A DNA stretch of 64,000 nt, taken from assembly GCF_003334315.1 (NCBI RefSeq), contig NZ_QOWR01000011.1; one strand, written 5' to 3'. Source of the DNA: Escherichia coli. Its GTDB lineage: Bacteria; Pseudomonadota; Gammaproteobacteria; Enterobacterales; Enterobacteriaceae. Shown piece after piece: positions 16,019 to 56,625 of the stretch (position 1 is the first letter of the stretch; each line of letters opens with the position of its first letter). Both the position numbers and the translations under genes were made by a program. The notes beneath the pieces were generated by a model. It did no database searches, had not been told where the DNA came from, and was given only the letters and a program-made list of their open reading frames with translations.

Positions 16019-16978
16019 TTATGCCATCGACGCGTAAAGGTTTTTAATGGTTTCCCGTAACCAGACGATCTTCGGATTATGGCTGTTCCGTTTATGCCAC
16101 AGCAGGGTAAAAGGAACTTCCAGCTTTTTTTGCTGGCTTTCGTCAAACGGGAGAGGAAGAGCAACCAACGGCAGTTGATGGAGTTGATTGTAGTACTGAC
16201 AGTAGCGCGGCGCGGTCGCCAGTAGCAGATTGTCGGGTTGCGCTGCCATAAACAGTGACTGCTCAAATTCCGGCAGGCTCATAGCAATCGTGCGTTCGCG
16301 CCCCAGCTCCTGTAACACATTGTCCAGCGCCCAGGTGTCGCTCTGTTCCCAGCAAATGCTGATATGCGGATAACGTAAAAAGGTGTCCAGATTCCACGTT
16401 TCATGCAGTGCCGGATGATCTTTGCGTAACCAGACGCAGGGTACATCACTAAACAGCACTTCATAATCAATGGCTAACGGTAGCGAGCTTAACAGCTCCC
16501 GCGAGCGAGGATGGCTTTCGCGACCGGAAAAACCAATATCCACTTCACCACGAGTAATGGCATCTAAGGAATCGTAATCCCAGTTACGTAGTTTGATGGT
16601 CGCCTGCGGGTAACGTTGGTAGATCCGTTTCGACAGCGCATTAAGCATGATCATCATCAGCGGCGATTCCGCCGCCAACTCAAACTTCAGGCCGCGCGGT
16701 GTCTGGTGGTGCGGTTTATCCAGCAGCAGATTGCTCATTTGCATCTATTCCGCCAGATTTTGCTCCATGCTGACCATCAGCGGTGTGGGCGACAGACCCA
16801 GCGGTGAGTTCACAAAGAGCGGGTCGTCAAACCACGCTCTTAACTTTGCCAGCGACTTACTCACCGCCGAAGGTGTCACGTTTATCCGCTTCGCCGCTTT
16901 GGTTACGCTGCGCTCCTGCATCAGCAGTTGCAGACAAAGCAGCAGATTGAGATCAAGCGTGGTGATGGATTTCTTCAT
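16019..16978 (-). pseudogene. yidZ: LysR-family transcriptional regulator YidZ interrupted by an in-frame TAG (amber) between the HTH and effector domains
   Basis: ORF-track pieces 16745..16987 (HTH: ...[16 protein letters not shown]...) and 16019..16744 (substrate-binding domain) are in the same frame, separated only by TAG at 16745-16747 (minus strand); combined length matches the expected 319 aa. Confidence 0.7.
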
Positions 16979-18128
16979 GAGCGGCAACGGGGCGTCCAGG
17001 CGCGACGAACATAATCAGCAACAGGCTCACTATGCTACAGGCAATCAGAATCCCGATCAGCATATTCCATGCGCCGATACCAACCACCGCTGCCAGCCAA
17101 ATCCACAGTGACGAACCGCAAACCTGCGCAATACCTAAGGTCGAGCTGGCTACGCCCGCGCGTAATGAAAACGGCCCTAACGCCTGACTCATCGCCACAC
17201 CAAAACCTACCGAGAAACCGGCGCAAATCAGCGTGATACCAAACAGAGAAACCGCATGGGAAGGTGAAACGGCAAGAGTGATCCCCGCCGCCAGGAATAA
17301 CACCTGCGAGGTGATCATCAACGTACGTGGCTTAAAAATTCCCAGCGCAAATGGCGTGGAGAATGAAACGGTCATGCTGACGCCAGCGGTCAGCGCCATA
17401 ATGGTGGCGTATTCACCGCGCTCAAACCCCATGATTTCCATCAGCAATACCGGTGACGTGTTGACGAAAGTGAGGATCACCGAAACGCTGAGGGTGGTGA
17501 TAACAACACGGCTGAGGAAAAAACGGTTAAGCAGCGACTCGCTATTTTCTCGTGGTTTATCCGAAGCTGCGGGGGCCGCTGGGCGCGTTTCTTTTAAAAT
17601 AAACAAAGACAACATCAGTACCGCGATGCCCATCATTGCCATCGCCCAGAACAGACTCTGCCACGGGAATTTAAGCATAATCAGATGTCCGAGCACTGGC
17701 GCTAACACCGGAATGATGCAGGTAATACCGTTGAGTAATGACAGCACTTTAGCCCGACGTCGATCATCCAGCGTGTCGCGCAAAATAGCGAACGCCACTA
17801 CGTAACAACAGCCTGCGCCCAACCCCTGTAGAAATCGGCCTGCAAGAAATAACGTGCTGGTTTCAGCCAGTGAACAGAACACCGAGGCAATAATAAATAG
17901 CGCCGCGCCGGGTATGGCGACCGGCTTTCTCCCTGAACGATCGGCCACTTTACCGGCAAATAACATCGCAGCTGCCATCCCCGCCAGATATACGGAGAAC
18001 GCAATATGCAACTGCGCTTCGCTGGCATTGAGATCGGCGGCGATGCGCGGTAAACCAACGAGGTACATATCAATCCCGGCGGGATAAAGTAAAACCAGGG
18101 CAAAACTACAAATCAAAAAGCGGGACAT
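16953..18128 (-). CDS. mdtL: MFS multidrug efflux transporter MdtL
   Basis: 391-aa 12-TM MFS ORF; 3' end overlaps the yidZ start by about 26 bp. Confidence 0.88.
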
Positions 18129-18259
18129 GGGCTAAAGCGTCCTGATAGTAAGGTGACGCAAAGCATACGTGGTGAAGGAGGATCAGGCGAGTTGCCATTT
18201 GGACATAAGTGATTTCCTGAGAGGCAAGAAGCCAGCGAATGGCTGGCTTCTTGAAGGAT

Positions 18260-19507
18260 TTAGCCAAATTTAGGTAACACGTTAAAGACGTTGCCGAACC
18301 AGCACAAAATCACGGTTATACCAAAGAGAATGACAATCGCCGGAATAAGATTGCCGCCCCAGACCGTGAACATCTGATTGGGAAACTTCTTGCGAGCTTT
18401 GATTGCAAGCACTGCGGGAATAATGACCGCCCAGATGGTGGCGCACAGCCCGGCACCGCCGATCCCGTAAATAAAGCCGTTCGGGAAGATCAGATACAAC
18501 AACGCAGGTGGCAGGAAGGTTAACAGCACGGTTTTGAAACGCCCGCCGTGGGAGTTATCAATCTTAAACAGGTCCGCCAGATAATCGAACAACCCCAGCG
18601 TGACACCAAAGAACGAACTGGCAACAGCTAAGTTAGAGAACACCAGCAGGCAAAACTCGATAATGCCGTGCTGTTTGGTGCCGAGGAACGATTTCACCAG
18701 CGAATCAACGTTGCCGCCTGAGGAGATAATCGCCTTAAAGCTTTCTCGCGGAATATTCCCCATGGTGCAATAGAGCCAGAAGAGATAAATCACCAGCGCC
18801 AGCAGCGAACCAAATACTACGCTTTTGATTAACTTATCTTTGCGTTTTCCATAGCAAATAATCAGGCTGGGAATATTGCCGTGGAAACCAAATGACGCCA
18901 GACACACCGGCAAAGCCATAAAGATATACGGGAAGTAAGACGTTCCCGCAGTGGAGCTGGTGGCGTCGCGCAGAATGGAGTAATCGACCTGGAAGAAAAA
19001 AGAACCAAACACGATCACAAAGGAGATAATCTTCAGCCCGAGGAACAATGAGGTAATACGACTGGCGGCTAACGAACTTAACCACAATACGCTGGCAACG
19101 AAAATGGCTGTGCAGATCCCGACAATACGTGGATTAGCGTGATAACCCAAATTCATTGATATCGTTTCACTAATGATCGCACCATTAGCAGAGATATAGG
19201 CATAAGTGAGGATATAGAGAACGAAGGCAACGGTAATACCGCTGATAATGTTCCAGGTGTTACCGATTAAATCTTTGGTGATGGTGTTAAAACTGGAGCC
19301 GACGGGATAATTTAAATTTGCTTCTAATAACAATAACCCGGAATGAAGCATTGAAAACCAGGCAATGATAAGGATAAAGGCACCCCAGAAAAACCAGGCA
19401 CCGGCAAGATCAACAGGTAAAGCAAACATACCTCCACCAATTACTGTACCTGCTATAACCATAACACCCCAAAATGCAGAGTGCTTTTTTTCAGCTTGAT
19501 CAGTCAT
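18260..19507 (-). CDS. tnaB: Low-affinity tryptophan permease
   Basis: 415-aa aromatic amino acid permease ORF downstream of tnaA. Confidence 0.9.
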   Translation of the reverse strand: MTDQAEKKHSAFWGVMVIAGTVIGGGMFALPVDLAGAWFFWGAFILIIAWFSMLHSGLLLLEANLNYPVGSSFNTITKDLIGNTWNIISGITVAFVLYILTYAYISANGAIISETISMNLGYHANPRIVGICTAIFVASVLWLSSLAASRITSLFLGLKIISFVIVFGSFFFQVDYSILRDATSSTAGTSYFPYIFMALPVCLASFGFHGNIPSLIICYGKRKDKLIKSVVFGSLLALVIYLFWLYCTMGNIPRESFKAIISSGGNVDSLVKSFLGTKQHGIIEFCLLVFSNLAVASSFFGVTLGLFDYLADLFKIDNSHGGRFKTVLLTFLPPALLYLIFPNGFIYGIGGAGLCATIWAVIIPAVLAIKARKKFPNQMFTVWGGNLIPAIVILFGITVILCWFGNVFNVLPKFG

Positions 19508-19597
19508 GATGCCACCTTTAGAGGAAGGCTATTTTTGTTATTGAGGATGTAGGGTAAGAGAGTGGCTAACATCCTTATAGCCACTCTGTAGTATTAA

Positions 19598-21013
19598 TTA
19601 AACTTCTTTAAGTTTTGCGGTGAAGTGACGCAATACTTTCGGTTCGTACGTAAAGGTTAATCCTTTAATATTCGCCGCGTTCTCTTTCACATGTTTAAAG
19701 GCTTCAATAATGAAGTCCATATGTGTTTGAGTATATGTTGCGCGCGGAATGGTTAAACGCAGCAGTTCAGCCGGGCATGGCAGTTGTTTACCGGTTTTCG
19801 GATCGCGGCCTAACAGGAAAGAGCCAATTTCTACCGCACGGATACCGGCGACTTTATACAGCTCGCAGGCCAGCGCCTGTGCCGGGAACTGGTCTGCCGG
19901 GATATGCGGCAACAGTTTACCGGCATCAACGAATGCCGCGTGACCGCCCGCCTGCTGGCAGACAACGCCAATCTCTTCCAGACCATCGACCAGATACTGT
20001 ACCTGCGCGATACGATAAGCCAGCCAGTCGAGATTCATGCCGTCATACAGACCTACCGCCAGACGCTCCATCGCGCCGCCTTCCAGGCCGCCATATGTCG
20101 GGAAGCCTTCCTGCACCACGCAAAGGGTTCTGCACTCGGTGTACACATCAAAGAAGCTGTCGTCTTTCATGCACAGCAGGCCGCCCATCGGCACCATCGC
20201 ATCTTTCTTGGCGGACATCGCCAGCATATCGGCATATTTGTAGGTTTCGCGGGTGATCTGCTCGATGGTCCAGTCTTTGTATTCTGCTTCACGCTGCTTG
20301 ATGAAATAGGCGTTTTCAGCAAAGCGCGCGGAGTCCATTACCACCGGAATATCGTATTTCTTCGCGATGCTGTACATCGCTTTTAAGTTTGCCAGTGAAA
20401 CCGGCTGACCACCTGCAGAGTTACTGGTGATGGTTGCAACGATATACGGCACGTTATTCGGACCAACTTCTTCAATACCGCGTTCTAATCCCTCAAGGTC
20501 AAAGTTGCCTTTAAAGTCGTAACGCACGCCCGTATCGAAGGCTTCTTTGATATAGACGTTACGCACGGTACAGCCGTTGATCTGGCTATGGCCCTGCGTG
20601 GTATCAAAGAAATAGTTAGAGAACGCCACCATTTTGCTGCGATCCAGGCCTTTTTCCTGCTCGCGTTTTTTAATCAGTACCGGAATATAGATTTGCTCTG
20701 CGCCACGGCCCTGGTGAGTCGGAATGGTGTATTGATAACCAAAGATATTTTTCACTGACTCGGCTAACGCATAGTAGCTACGACTGCCGCTGTAGGCTTC
20801 GTCGCCGCGCATCATCGCAGCCTGCATGCTCTGCGTCACCGCCCCGGTGCCGCTGTCGGTCAGTAAATCGATAAACACATCTTCGCTATCCAGCAGGAAC
20901 GGGTTCATACCGGATTTAATAATTGCCTCTTCACGATAAGCGCGAGTGGTACGTTTTACTGGCTCAATAACACGAATGCGGAACGGTTCAGGGAGATGTT
21001 TAAAGTTTTCCAT
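19598..21013 (-). CDS. tnaA: Tryptophanase (tryptophan indole-lyase), PLP-dependent
   Basis: 471 aa from internal Met ([24 protein letters not shown]...); the ORF-track start MKDYV is an upstream extension. Confidence 0.93.
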
Positions 21014-21233
21014 TACATAATCCTTCATTTATTTTAATTACAGTGATCCCTGTGAATATTACATCTGCTATACCGATTAATTCGCCAGATATATATGCAA
21101 GCACCATCATTTACTAAAACAAGTAAATAAACGAGAGATGACCTTTGCAAAAGGCAAAATTAAGATATAGCAAACAAATAGATCACATTGAATCTAATCG
21201 GTTTGGCTCTGGTGATGGCTACAGAAGGGCAAA

Positions 21234-21308
21234 TCAAGGGCGGTGATCGACAATTTTGTTGTCAATATTGAACCATTTTGAGGTCACACATATATGTAAG
21301 ATATTCAT
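21234..21308 (-). CDS. tnaC: tna operon leader peptide TnaC (24 aa)
   Basis: Minus-strand ORF atgaatatcttacatatatgtgtgacctcaaaatggttcaatattgacaacaaaattgtcgatcaccgcccttga = MNILHICVTSKWFNIDNKIVDHRP*; below the ORF-track size cutoff. Confidence 0.9.
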   Translation of the reverse strand: MNILHICVTSKWFNIDNKIVDHRP

Positions 21309-21470
21309 AATGCACTTATCCTCGCAAGACACGAGGCTACATTATTACACTCAGAGTTTTTGTCTATTCTGAAATTGTTTAAATGTGAATCGAATCACAA
21401 TCGTTCGGGGAGCAATATTAAATGCTTTTTTTAAAGATTATAAATTACGTAAGAATTTTAATGTTTAAAA
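21309..21470 (-). promoter_or_regulatory. tna promoter region (AT-rich, catabolite-controlled)
   Basis: AT-rich segment upstream of tnaC; position-based inference, exact -35/-10 not assigned. Confidence 0.4.
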
Positions 21471-21550
21471 AAAGGGTTGAGGAATAACAGGAGTGGTAAC
21501 AATGAAGCGAAGCCGCATCTGACAGTCAGAATGCGGCTTCGTAAGCGCGG

Positions 21551-22915
21551 TTACTTACCAATACAGAAGCTGGAGAAAATCCGCCCCAGCAGGTCGTCTG
21601 AAGTAAATTCCCCGGTGATTTCGCTTAAGTTCTGCTGTGCCAGACGCAACTCTTCCGCCAGCAGTTCACCTGCCCAGGCTCCCAACAGTTGCGCTTTGCC
21701 CTGTTGTAGATGTTCCGCTGCCTGTTCCAGCGCCTGTAGGTGGCGACGACGCGCCAGGAAGCCGCCTTCCATGTTGGTGTCAAAGCCCATGCTCTGTTTG
21801 AGATGGTTACGCAGCACGTCCACGCCTTCACCAGTCCTTGCCGAGAGACGAATTAACGCGTGACCGTTCACTTCACTCATTCCCAGCGTTTCGCCGGTGA
21901 TATCGGCTTTATTGCGCACCACGGTGATCGGCAGTTTCGCTGGCAGACGGGCAATAAATTCCGGCCAGATCTCTGCCGGATCCACGGCGTCTGTTGTGGT
22001 GCCATCGACCATAAACAGCACGCGGTCGGCCTGTTCAATTTCCTGCCACGCGCGCTCGATACCAATACGTTCTACTTCGTCACTGGCTTCACGTAGCCCG
22101 GCGGTATCGATGATATGCAGCGGCATTCCGTCAATGTGGATATGCTCACGCAGCACGTCACGCGTAGTTCCGGCGATATCGGTTACGATTGCCGCTTCAC
22201 GCCCCGCCAGCGCGTTTAACAGGCTCGATTTACCGGCGTTAGGACGTCCGGCAATCACCACTTTCATCCCTTCGCGCAACAAACTACCCTGACGTGCTTC
22301 AGCACGCACTGCATCAAGATCGGCAATAACGTCATTGAGCTGGGCTTCAATTTTTCCGTCGGAGAGGAAATCGATCTCTTCATCGGGGAAATCAATTGCC
22401 GCTTCGACGTAAATGCGCAAGTGGGTGAGGGCTTCTACCAGATGATTAACCCGTGCGGAGAATGCGCCTTGCAGCGAGTTAAGTGCCGAACGGGCCGCCT
22501 GTTCCGAACTGGCGTCGATAAGATCGGCAATCGCCTCGGCCTGGGCTAAGTCAAGTTTATCGTTAAGAAACGCGCGTTCGGAAAACTCACCAGGGCGAGC
22601 AATCCGCAGGCCGGGAATGGTCAGAATGCGTTTTAACAGCAGGTCGAGGATCACCGGACCGCCATGACCTTGCAGTTCCAGCACATCTTCGCCGGTGAAC
22701 GAGTTCGGGCCAGGGAACCATAGCGCAATCCCCTGATCGAGCACGCTGCCGTCGGCGTCTTTAAACGGAAGATAATCGGCGTAGCGCGGCTTAGGCAGTT
22801 TACCCAGCACGGTTTCGGCAACTTCACGGGCTTTGAAGCCGGAGATGCGCAGGATGCCAACGCCGCCACGTCCCGGAGGCGTGGCCTGGGCTACGATAGT
22901 GTCATTATCGCTCAT
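21551..22915 (-). CDS. mnmE: tRNA modification GTPase MnmE
   Basis: 454-aa ORF with G-domain motifs ([18 protein letters not shown]) and C-terminal CIGK. Confidence 0.93.
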
Positions 22916-22971
22916 GATGTTCCTGTTGCTTTGTGTGGCGGATGCGCGGTGCTTATCCGCCCTACGAAAAG

Positions 22972-23003
22972 AAAAAAGGCGGTCAACTGACCGCCCTTAT
23001 TTT
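22972..23003 (-). terminator. Hairpin plus T-run downstream of yidC
   Basis: Minus strand: ggcggtcagttgaccgcc followed by tttttt; a REP-like palindrome lies at about 22940-22968. Confidence 0.55.
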
Positions 23004-23020
23004 AGCGAAAACTCACCGAA

Positions 23021-24667
23021 TCAGGATTTTTTCTTCTCGCGGCTATGCAGGCCACGTTTTTCCAGACCACGGTAAATCAGCTGCTGCTGAATAATGGTTA
23101 CCAGGTTGCTGACGATATAGTACAGCACCAGACCTGACGGGAACCACAGGAAGAACACGGTGAAGATGACCGGCATAAAGGTCATGATCTTCTGCTGCAT
23201 CGGGTCGGTCACTGTGGTCGGCGACATCTTCTGAATGAAGAACATCGTTACGCCCATCAGGATCGGCAGGATGTAGTACGGGTCCTGTGCCGACAGGTCG
23301 TGGATCCACAGTGCAAACGGTGCCTGACGCAGTTCAACGGAACCCATCAGCATGTAGTACAACGCCAGGAAGATTGGCATCTGGATCAGCAGCGGGAAGC
23401 AGCCGCCCAGCGGGTTAACCTTCTCAGCTTTGTACAGCGCCATCATTTCCTGGCTGATACGCTGTTTGTCATCGCCCAGACGCTCACGCATTGCCTGAAT
23501 CTTCGGCTGCAACATACGCATCTTCGCCATGGAGGTGTACTGCGCTTTGGTCAGCGGGTACATGATGCCACGAACGATAAAGGTGATGATGATAATGGAG
23601 AAGCCCCAGTTACCCACAAAGCTATGGATCCATTTCAGCAGTTTGAACAGCGGCTGAGAGATGAACCACAACCAACCGTAATCAACGGTCAGATCCAGGT
23701 GCGGAGCAACAGCTGCCATTTTGTCCTGGATTTCCGGGCCAACCCACAGGGTGCTGTTCATCGCGCCAGTCTGACCAGGCTGAACCAATACCGGCTGAGA
23801 TTTATAGCCGATAGCGGCGATGCCGTTACCCAGATTAGCGGTATAGAAGTTGTTGGTACCGTCGTTATGCGGGATCCACGCCGTCGCGAAATACTGTTGC
23901 AGCATCGCCACCCAACCACCTTTCGAAGAGATGTTCAGGTTTTCGTTATCGGCAATGGTATCGAACTTGTATTTCTCATACTTCTCGTCAGGCGTGGAGT
24001 ACGCCGCGCCACGGAAGGTGTGCAGTGCGAAGTTGCTGCTTCCGGTATCGAGATGCGGTGGCAGAGTGATGGATTGCTTCAACTGACCAAACGAGGAGAT
24101 TTCCAGCGGTTTCTCGCCAGCGTTCTGCACGTTGTAGTTGACGTTGACAGCGTAATCACCACGTTTCAGGACAAACGTTTTGGTAAACGTGTTGCCTGCC
24201 GCGTCGGTATACGTCATCGGCACCTGCAGTTCGTTTTGACCTTCAGCCAGCACATAAGCGTCTTTTTCAACGTTATACAGCGGACGCGGGCCGTTAGCCG
24301 GGTTATCCGGGCCATCACGACCGGTCAGACCGCTCTGTGCCTGATAAATAAACTGCGGTGAAGTTTCCAACAGCTGGAACGGCTGGGTAGAGTTCAGCTC
24401 TTTCGGGTAAGCAGGCAGCAGAGCTTGCTCAACATCACCACCACGGGTGTTGATGGTCAGATCAAGCACGTCGGTCTTAACCGAGATCAGTTTCCCCTGG
24501 CCACTGGCCGGTACGCCCTGGTCGGCGGCGCTACCCGCTGCGGTGGTCGTTGTCTGCGTGGTCTGTTGGGCCTGAGGTTGCGGGTTTTTATCCTGCTCCC
24601 AGGCTTGCCAGATCATGAAAGACACGAACAGCAAAGCGATGACTAAAAGATTGCGTTGCGAATCCAT
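23021..24667 (-). CDS. yidC: Membrane protein insertase YidC
   Basis: 548-aa ORF; N-terminal TM, large periplasmic domain, conserved C-terminal 5-TM core. Confidence 0.93.
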
Positions 24668-26013: not shown

Positions 26014-27417
26014 GTGTCACTTTCGCTTTGGCAGCAGTGTCTTGCCCGATTGCAGGATGAGTTACCAGCCACAGAATTCAGTATGTGGATACGCCCATTG
26101 CAGGCGGAACTGAGCGATAACACGCTGGCCCTGTACGCGCCAAACCGTTTTGTCCTCGATTGGGTACGGGACAAGTACCTTAATAATATCAATGGACTGC
26201 TAACCAGTTTCTGCGGAGCGGATGCCCCACAGCTGCGTTTTGAAGTCGGCACCAAACCGGTGACGCAAACGCCACAAGCGGCAGTGACGAGCAACGTCGC
26301 GGCCCCTGCACAGGTGGCGCAAACGCAGCCGCAACGTGCTGCGCCTTCTACGCGCTCAGGTTGGGATAACGTCCCGGCCCCGGCAGAACCGACCTATCGT
26401 TCTAACGTAAACGTCAAACACACGTTTGATAACTTCGTTGAAGGTAAATCTAACCAACTGGCGCGCGCGGCGGCTCGCCAGGTGGCGGATAACCCTGGCG
26501 GTGCCTATAACCCGTTGTTCCTTTATGGCGGCACGGGTCTGGGTAAAACTCACCTGCTGCATGCGGTGGGTAACGGCATTATGGCGCGCAAGCCGAATGC
26601 CAAAGTGGTTTATATGCACTCCGAGCGCTTTGTTCAGGACATGGTTAAAGCCCTGCAAAACAACGCGATCGAAGAGTTTAAACGCTACTACCGTTCCGTA
26701 GATGCACTGCTGATCGACGATATTCAGTTTTTTGCTAATAAAGAACGATCTCAGGAAGAGTTTTTCCACACCTTCAACGCCCTGCTGGAAGGTAATCAAC
26801 AGATCATTCTCACCTCGGATCGCTATCCGAAAGAGATCAACGGCGTTGAGGATCGTTTGAAATCCCGCTTCGGTTGGGGACTGACTGTGGCGATCGAACC
26901 GCCAGAGCTGGAAACCCGTGTGGCGATCCTGATGAAAAAGGCCGACGAAAACGACATTCGTTTGCCGGGCGAAGTGGCGTTCTTTATCGCCAAGCGTCTA
27001 CGATCTAACGTACGTGAGCTGGAAGGGGCGCTGAACCGCGTCATTGCCAATGCCAACTTTACCGGACGGGCGATCACCATCGACTTCGTGCGTGAGGCGC
27101 TGCGCGACTTGCTGGCATTGCAGGAAAAACTGGTCACCATCGACAATATTCAGAAGACGGTGGCGGAGTACTACAAGATCAAAGTCGCGGATCTCCTTTC
27201 CAAGCGTCGATCCCGCTCGGTGGCGCGTCCGCGCCAGATGGCGATGGCGCTGGCGAAAGAGCTGACTAACCACAGTCTGCCGGAGATTGGCGATGCGTTT
27301 GGTGGCCGTGACCACACGACGGTGCTTCATGCCTGCCGTAAGATCGAGCAGTTGCGTGAAGAGAGCCACGATATCAAAGAAGATTTTTCAAATTTAATCA
27401 GAACATTGTCATCGTAA
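26014..27417 (+). CDS. dnaA: Chromosomal replication initiator DnaA
   Basis: 467 aa from GTG 26014 ([13 protein letters not shown]...); AAA+ Walker [12 protein letters not shown]; C-terminal DNA-binding domain. Confidence 0.95.
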
Positions 27418-32039: not shown

Positions 32040-32160
32040 GGCGCTAACCATGCGAGCGTGCCTGATGCGCTACGCTTATCAGGCCTACGAAAATCTTGCA
32101 ATGTATTGAATTTTCATGATTTTGTAGGCCGGATAAGGCGTTCACGCCGCATCCGGCAAG
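32040..32160. repeat. Tandem REP/BIME-like palindromic units downstream of gyrB
   Basis: gcctgatgcgctacgcttatcaggcctac and ggccggataaggcgttcacgccgcatccggc, REP consensus in opposite orientations. Confidence 0.65.
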
Positions 32161-42218: not shown

Positions 42219-42320
42219 TACATCGTAGCCGATGAGGACGCGCCTGATGGGTGTTCTGGCTACCTGACCTGTCCATTGTGGAAGGTCTTACATTCTCGCT
42301 GATTTCAGGAGCTATTGATT

Positions 42321-42734
42321 ATGCGTAACTTTGATTTATCCCCGCTTTACCGTTCTGCTATTGGATTTGACCGTTTGTTTAACCACTTAGAAAACAACCA
42401 GAGCCAGAGTAATGGCGGCTACCCTCCGTATAACGTTGAACTGGTAGACGAAAACCATTACCGCATTGCTATCGCTGTGGCTGGTTTTGCTGAGAGCGAA
42501 CTGGAAATTACCGCCCAGGATAATCTGCTGGTGGTGAAAGGTGCTCACGCCGACGAACAAAAAGAGCGCACCTATCTGTACCAGGGCATCGCTGAACGCA
42601 ACTTTGAACGCAAATTCCAGTTAGCTGAGAACATTCATGTTCGTGGGGCTAACCTGGTAAATGGTTTGCTGTATATCGATCTCGAACGCGTGATTCCGGA
42701 AGCGAAAAAACCGCGCCGTATCGAAATCAACTAA
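42321..42734 (+). CDS. ibpA: Small heat-shock protein IbpA (alpha-crystallin family)
   Basis: 137 aa [24 protein letters not shown]...; alpha-crystallin domain. Confidence 0.93.
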
Positions 42735-56444: not shown

Positions 56445-56550
56445 ATATTTGGACAAAACGCAAACTGTGATCGATACTCAACTATGCACTAAATACGTCA
56501 AAATTCGTGCCGAAATTGCGCGTTCTGCGCGGAACACGTATACTTTCAGT

Positions 56551-56625
56551 GTTGACATAATACAGTGTGCTTTGCGGTTACCAGCCGCAGGCGACTGACG
56601 AAACCTCGCTCCGGCGGGGTTTTTT
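56551..56625 (+). ncRNA. istR: IstR-1 antitoxin sRNA (about 75 nt); the longer SOS-induced IstR-2 would start upstream near the LexA box
   Basis: TATACT -10 at 56539-56544; 5' segment gttgacataatacagtgtgct complementary to tisAB mRNA (plus-strand 56293-56313); ends in GC hairpin plus U-run (56600-56625). Confidence 0.65.

Follow-up and report, generated by a model that had tools for sequence, protein, structure and literature searches.

The window analyzed here, a 64,000-nt stretch of Escherichia coli DNA, carries mnmE, tnaC, tnaA, tnaB, and mdtL in the order in which these genes are found in E. coli (Table 1). tnaC, tnaA, and tnaB all lie on the minus strand, and the tnaA ATG at position 21013 is located 220 nt downstream of tnaC. 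In the ORF listing, tnaA opens with the in-frame ATG of position 21028 (476 aa, MKDYVMENF...); the ATG at 21013, which gives a protein of 471 aa, is both the annotated start and the start of the profile match, and it is preceded by the Shine-Dalgarno sequence AAGGA. Elsewhere in the window, four matches at gathering score to Rfam families were found: the istR sRNA (56496-56625, plus strand), AsdA, an antisense RNA of the dnaA mRNA (26524-26604, minus strand), a ROSE_2 thermoregulator (42255-42327, plus strand), and the ES036 (CssrF) sRNA (32081-32123, minus strand). These are consistent with the region of the E. coli chromosome around dnaA.

Table 1. Features of the tna locus and its flanks, in the coordinates of the 64,000-nt window
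Feature	Position	Strand	Description
mnmE	21551-22915	minus	Upstream of tnaC; passes the MnmE equivalog model
CRP/CAP-type site, TGTGATTCGATTCACA	21384-21399	minus	Upstream of the tna promoter; both half-sites exact (TGTGA-N6-TCACA)
Candidate -10 element of the tna promoter, TAATAAT	21341-21347	minus	Putative; read from the sequence
Shine-Dalgarno sequence of tnaC, GAGGA	21319-21323	minus	Read from the sequence; 10 nt to the ATG at 21308
tnaC leader ORF	21234-21308	minus	24 codons plus TGA stop; product MNILHICVTSKWFNIDNKIVDHRP
tnaC codon Trp12, TGG	21275-21273	minus	
tnaC codon Asp16	21263-21261	minus	
tnaC codon Ile19	21254-21252	minus	
tnaC codon Pro24, CCT	21239-21237	minus	
tnaC stop codon, TGA	21236-21234	minus	
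boxA-like sequence, CGCCCTTGA	21234-21242	minus	Overlaps Pro24 and the stop codon; two mismatches to the boxA consensus CGCTCTTTA
Putative rut-like patch	21191-21270	minus	More C than G, little structure; 3' end of tnaC plus roughly 40 nt at the start of the spacer
Transcribed tnaC-tnaA spacer	21014-21233	minus	220 nt; includes the tnaA Shine-Dalgarno sequence AAGGA (21025-21021)
tnaA	19598-21013	minus	Tryptophanase, 471 aa; TIGR02617 equivalog, 1010 bits (cutoff, 825.8); RefSeq annotation
tnaB	18260-19507	minus	Low-affinity tryptophan permease, 415 aa; NF007235, 925 bits (cutoff, 497); RefSeq annotation
mdtL	16953-18128	minus	Downstream of tnaB; passes an MdtL-family subfamily model

The minus strand at 21234-21308 reads ATGAATATCTTACATATATGTGTGACCTCAAAATGGTTCAATATTGACAACAAAATTGTCGATCACCGCCCTTGA, which translates as MNILHICVTSKWFNIDNKIVDHRP followed by a stop. 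The product has all four of the residues W12, D16, I19, and P24, which have been described as the critical residues of TnaC (PMC10941005). Its proline lies 12 residues past the tryptophan, and the proline codon directly adjoins the stop codon (CCT TGA, 21239-21234). A 32-aa version of the same frame appears in the ORF listing, beginning at an in-frame GTG at 21332, upstream of the ATG; the tnaC start is the ATG at 21308, which is the start in every RefSeq annotation and is served by a Shine-Dalgarno sequence. Directly upstream of tnaC there is also an inverted repeat, CCTCG-N7-CGAGG (21320-21336, minus strand), the 3' arm of which overlaps the GAGGA of the Shine-Dalgarno sequence. Among the alleles described below, the O157:H7 allele differs at position 21335, in the 5' arm of the repeat, and all four non-K-12 alleles differ at position 21325, in its loop.

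A 24-codon ORF is unremarkable on its own, because the 12 kb around it hold 173 listed ORFs with a length of 20 aa or more, and the case for tnaC therefore rests on sequence matches. The peptide matches the NCBIfam equivalog TIGR02616 (tnaC_leader) with 44.3 bits against a cutoff of 23.55 (E = 1.1e-11), residues 3 to 24 aligning with positions 1 to 22 of the 22-position profile. Chain 7 of PDB entry 6I0Y, a stalled-ribosome structure in which this chain is named "Tryptophanase operon leader peptide", is the same as the peptide at all 24 residues (E = 3.4e-14), and residues 5 to 24 of the peptide (20 aa) are identical to the TnaC chain of PDB entry 4UY8. At the DNA level, the 161-nt leader is 100% identical to positions 3888403-3888563 of E. 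coli K-12 MG1655 (NC_000913.3), where the matching ORF is annotated as tnaC (b3707, 3888435..3888509). The 161-nt leader is present in 5,400 of 5,426 complete E. coli genomes, on the chromosome in every case, and RefSeq annotates tnaC at the same place in E. coli genomes. The first-pass annotation, made from the letters alone, had read this ORF as TnaC, with Trp12 and a C-terminal Pro-stop, upstream of tnaA. Its translation was recovered exactly; the name is borne out by the TIGR02616 score above cutoff, the identity to the 6I0Y chain, and the b3707 annotation, and that it precedes tnaA on the same strand is borne out by the tnaA and tnaB profile matches and by RefSeq. The element is one that is already known, and the allele in the window is the reference K-12 allele.

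The sequence upstream of tnaC contains a CRP/CAP-type site, all 16 bases of which are unchanged in the five aligned E. coli alleles. Initiation at tna has been described as under catabolite repression (PMC8429421, PMC10941005), and this repression probably acts through the site at 21384-21399. No full sigma-70 match turned up on this strand in a scan for consensus promoters, as would be expected for a promoter that depends on an activator. E. coli alleles differ in the candidate -10 element, at positions 21348, 21346, and 21342; over the interval 21341-21358, K-12 has GTGTAATAATG where the other alleles have GTATTATACTG, and positions 21354-21358 differ too. The published tna leader, which we take to be about 319 nt long, would place the start of transcription near 21332.

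A C-rich, G-poor, rut-like spacer between tnaC and tnaA had been put forward as a check on the leader, and this expectation held for one part of the region only. The 220-nt spacer as a whole is AT-rich (A+T 66%, with C at 15.9% and G at 17.7%), but the 3' end of tnaC and the approximately 40 nt that follow its stop codon do contain more C than G. Of the first 40 nt past the stop, 13 are C and 7 are G, and in 60-nt windows within 21270-21191 the excess of C over G amounts to 10 to 11; because this excess reaches only about the 95th percentile of the 64,000-nt window, a rut site could not be recognized from composition by itself. C also exceeds G in the 40 nt past the stop in all 51 distinct leaders examined (28 of 28 of the Enterobacteriaceae type and 23 of 23 of the Morganellaceae type), and in the remainder of each of these spacers C is about equal to or lower than G. 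The local signature is thus conserved although the sequence is not. The 86-nt segment around the stop codon folds no better than its shuffles (z = 0.12), the fold of the spacer is not significantly stable (z = -1.48), and a terminator scan found no intrinsic-terminator-like site on the minus strand in 21014-21233. The boxA-like sequence at the very end of tnaC touches on the subject of a study by Konan and Yanofsky from 2000, which reportedly concerned the role of boxA in tna termination. In the literature, the rut site is placed "immediately adjacent" to the tnaC stop codon (PMC8429421, PMC10941005), and, judged by its composition and lack of structure, the patch next to the stop appears to agree with that position. 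Furthermore, the spacer measured here has the published length of 220 nt, and ribosomal protein L4 has been reported to bind the 220-nt spacer RNA and to lower TnaA translation (PMC7186457).

To describe variation within the species, five E. coli alleles were aligned, that of the window and four others (L095 to L098), and positions 21400 down to 20930 were interpreted. The 161-nt leaders of the four other alleles show 96 to 98% nucleotide identity, and all four carry the TnaC protein accession WP_001364348.1; the TnaC peptide is invariant in the alleles sampled. The 75-nt tnaC ORF has five variable sites in the five alleles, comprising four synonymous changes (at Ile15, Asn17, Lys18, and His22) and a TGA-to-TAA change of the stop codon. 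In the tnaC-tnaA spacer, 25 of 220 sites vary (11%), with a single variable site in approximately the first 50 nt past the tnaC stop. The stop codon is TGA in the window, in K-12, in the O157:H7 allele (L095), and in L098, and it is TAA in L096 and L097, which represent a class of about 96% identity that makes up about one-third of the ranked genome list.

Larger differences were seen farther upstream. In O157:H7 strain JEONG-1266 (L095), the sequence upstream of the CRP site does not align with that of K-12 (compared with window positions 21400-21550), and no mnmE annotation is present within 250 nt of the upstream segment. Coverage of a 611-nt query falls below 80% in 791 of 5,420 genomes. 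A sizeable minority of E. coli strains therefore have a variable or replaced distal part of the mnmE-tnaC intergenic region. Strains E70 and AH62 have IS1 transposase genes annotated inside the mnmE-tnaC-tnaA interval; in AH62, the tnaC annotation is absent and only 17% of the query is matched. In STEC388, only 42% of the leader is matched. E. coli records with an altered tna leader, at the equivalent of approximately 21200-21550, are NZ_CM173937.1, NZ_CP055259.1, and NZ_CP041425.1. The IS1 insertions and partial leader matches therefore indicate that the tna regulatory region is disrupted in some strains.

Conservation beyond E. coli was examined by scanning one genome per species with a degenerate DNA motif, back-translated from K-W-F-N-I-D followed by seven codons and Pro. 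This gave 92 matches, in which the conservation and spacing of K, W, F, N, I, D, and the Pro at +12 from Trp are partly circular, being forced by a motif that also misses variants. For 50 of the 92, a TnaA homologue follows on the same strand at a distance of 88 to 274 nt, four more are clearly TnaC but sit on DNA that ends within 350 nt of the stop, and one is the tnaC of Proteus penneri, without an intact tnaA. The other 37 are found in unrelated reading frames, mostly in long ORFs; the number expected by chance, estimated by hand, is a few tens. Several features that the pattern did not force, the linkage to tnaA among them, nevertheless characterize the tnaA-linked set. Residue 19 is I (27 ORFs) or L (23 ORFs) in all 50 of these ORFs, and in all 27 of the Enterobacteriaceae type the Pro is followed by the stop and an in-frame ATG places Trp at position 12 or 13. 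Such unforced features are uniform in the tnaA-linked set and scattered in the chance set. The first-pass annotation had named a lack of conservation in related tna operons as the result that would speak against it; what we find is a TnaC-like ORF ahead of tnaA at 50 loci from Enterobacteriaceae and Morganellaceae, and a peptide that does not vary among the E. coli alleles sampled.

Two types of leader can be distinguished among these loci. Leaders of the Enterobacteriaceae type have the form ...SKWFNIDxxIVNHRP-stop, with a spacer of 221 to 274 nt, and those of the Morganellaceae type (Proteus, Providencia, Xenorhabdus, and Moellerella) have the form ...KKWFNIDxxLAFFFPxK-stop, with a spacer of 88 to 111 nt and a TnaA that is about 53% identical. 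The two types share the K-W-F-N-I-D core, the Pro at +12, a hydrophobic residue 19, a downstream tnaA, and a stretch past the stop with more C than G, which in the Morganellaceae is very poor in G. In contrast, the Morganellaceae peptides have a longer N terminus, with Trp at about position 19 or 20, and one or two extra codons past the Pro (for example, ...AFFFPEK-stop), so that the Pro does not adjoin the stop codon. Stop codons in the 50 tnaA-linked leaders are TAA in 41, TAG in 5, and TGA in 4, and the RF2-specific UGA of K-12 is therefore a minority state.

The Proteus penneri locus (strain ATCC 33519; L008, 3494-3750) keeps a TnaC-like ORF, SMFSSFNVLIILRGFFRLNKWFNIDSELAFFFPEK followed by a stop, with no intact tnaA after it. 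The remnant of tnaA there comprises TnaA residues 449 to 471 only, and in comparison with P. faecis (L026), stretches of about 370, 900, and 1,000 nt are absent from the tnaA/tnaB region. P. penneri is an indole-negative Proteus, which would fit the loss of tnaA.

Overall, the feature at 21234-21308 is almost certainly tnaC, which acts in cis as the leader ORF of the tnaCAB operon in E. coli K-12 and at which tryptophan-induced arrest relieves Rho-dependent termination. Transcription would begin at the CRP-dependent promoter, and a ribosome would then translate the 24 codons of tnaC. When free L-tryptophan is low, release factor (RF2 at the UGA) would act at the stop codon to cleave TnaC-tRNAPro, and the ribosome would depart, exposing unstructured rut RNA with more C than G next to the stop; Rho would load there and terminate transcription at pause sites in the 220-nt spacer, before tnaA is reached. 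At high L-tryptophan levels, the amino acid would be bound jointly by the nascent peptide and the exit tunnel, with contributions from W12, D16, and I19, and with P24 at the peptidyl-transferase center, release-factor-mediated hydrolysis would be blocked. The stalled ribosome would then stay on the stop codon and cover rut, and RNA polymerase would continue into tnaA and tnaB.

Published work on the identical K-12 sequence has reported that ribosomes arrest at codon 24 in response to tryptophan and that Rho terminates transcription in the spacer (PMC8429421, PMC10941005, PMC12360218). According to the same studies, W12 and D16 lie at the tunnel constriction and I19 is involved with A2058, a compacted nascent chain captures L-Trp together with the tunnel, and P24 and residue 23 block RF2-mediated hydrolysis (PMC8429421, PMC10941005, PMC12360218). 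The mechanism that had been assigned to the ORF at the outset, in which a ribosome stalled in the presence of tryptophan blocks Rho termination, is the one that this literature describes (PMC8429421, PMC10941005, PMC12360218). Our own computations established what the sequence is identical to, in which operon it lies, that it is conserved, and that the rut region is locally biased in composition and unstructured. Stalling, Rho dependence, and tryptophan binding are taken from the literature on the identical K-12 sequence. Nothing was found against reading the feature as tnaC.

Short leader ORFs with one or more Trp codons and read-through controlled by tryptophan are also known from trpL of the trp biosynthetic operon, which senses charged tRNA-Trp via tandem Trp codons and works through alternative hairpins and an intrinsic terminator. 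An attenuator of that kind at tna, with ribosomes pausing at the Trp codon according to the charging of tRNA-Trp, would account for a short leader ORF with a Trp codon ahead of a tryptophan-related operon, but it is very improbable. The ORF contains a single Trp codon and not a tandem pair, the spacer on this strand lacks a terminator-like hairpin with a T-run, and the folding scores given above describe a spacer that is not significantly stable and a segment past the stop that is unstructured. A search of 18000-24000 found no match to an Rfam leader family at E values up to 1; this is expected and is not counter-evidence to tnaC, because the leader is peptide based. The logic is also inverted, in that tryptophan induces tna instead of repressing it. 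Furthermore, the published arrest occurs at Pro24 and the stop codon, with Trp12 acting as an exit-tunnel residue (PMC8429421, PMC10941005), and toeprints at the stop codon, not at codon 12, have been reported along with termination that is sensitive to Rho inhibition (PMC8429421, PMC12360218). tnaC differs from trpL in having one Trp codon, no terminator hairpin, free tryptophan as its signal, and Rho as its terminator (PMC8429421, PMC12360218).

It is more improbable still that the product is a free small protein of 24 residues that acts in trans and only happens to be encoded ahead of tnaA. The peptide is detectable as a product in vitro (PMC7186457), but its conserved features are those needed inside the ribosome (W12, D16, I or L at residue 19, and P24 by the stop), and the composition of the RNA adjoining the stop co-varies with the ORF. 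In addition, a passage in a review cites work by Gish and Yanofsky from 1995 as evidence for action in cis (PMC12360218). That the ORF is a functionless product of chance in the mnmE-tnaA intergenic region, for which only the abundance of short ORFs speaks, is just as implausible and is refuted by the match to a curated model, the identity to the peptide chain of a ribosome structure, the absence of amino acid changes in E. coli alleles against 11% variable spacer sites, and the 50 loci from other genera at which it is linked to tnaA.

TnaC, as the ORF is identified here, is among the best-studied ribosome-arrest peptides, with genetics dating from 1985 and cryo-electron microscopy structures. 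The tna locus of the window shows no difference from the K-12 system (b3707; TIGR02616; 6I0Y and 4UY8), having the same peptide, leader DNA, 220-nt spacer, and gene order, and it differs from other E. coli alleles in that some of these have TAA in place of the TGA stop and a different -10 region. The regulatory logic is shared with SpeFL and speF, where an arrest peptide encoded by an upstream ORF senses a small molecule, ornithine, in the exit tunnel, and ribosome stalling likewise keeps Rho from terminating transcription; that system has another peptide, another ligand, and another operon, and the likeness is one of logic as drawn in a review (PMC12360218). TnaC is also in use as a tryptophan biosensor (PMC12360218).

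These results show that a functional ORF of 24 codons, below the usual ORF-length cutoffs, was recognized from sequence alone at its exact coordinates. The comparison yielded three by-products: two architectural classes of leader, a conserved patch past the stop with more C than G, and a variable stop codon. With respect to the last of these, UGA is read by RF2 only and UAA by both RF1 and RF2, and for this reason we raise the speculative idea, which we regard as rather unlikely, that the stop-codon, -10, and distal-spacer haplotypes of E. coli might set different levels of basal and induced indole production. If this were true, the identity of the tnaC stop codon would serve in nature to tune a ribosome-arrest switch.
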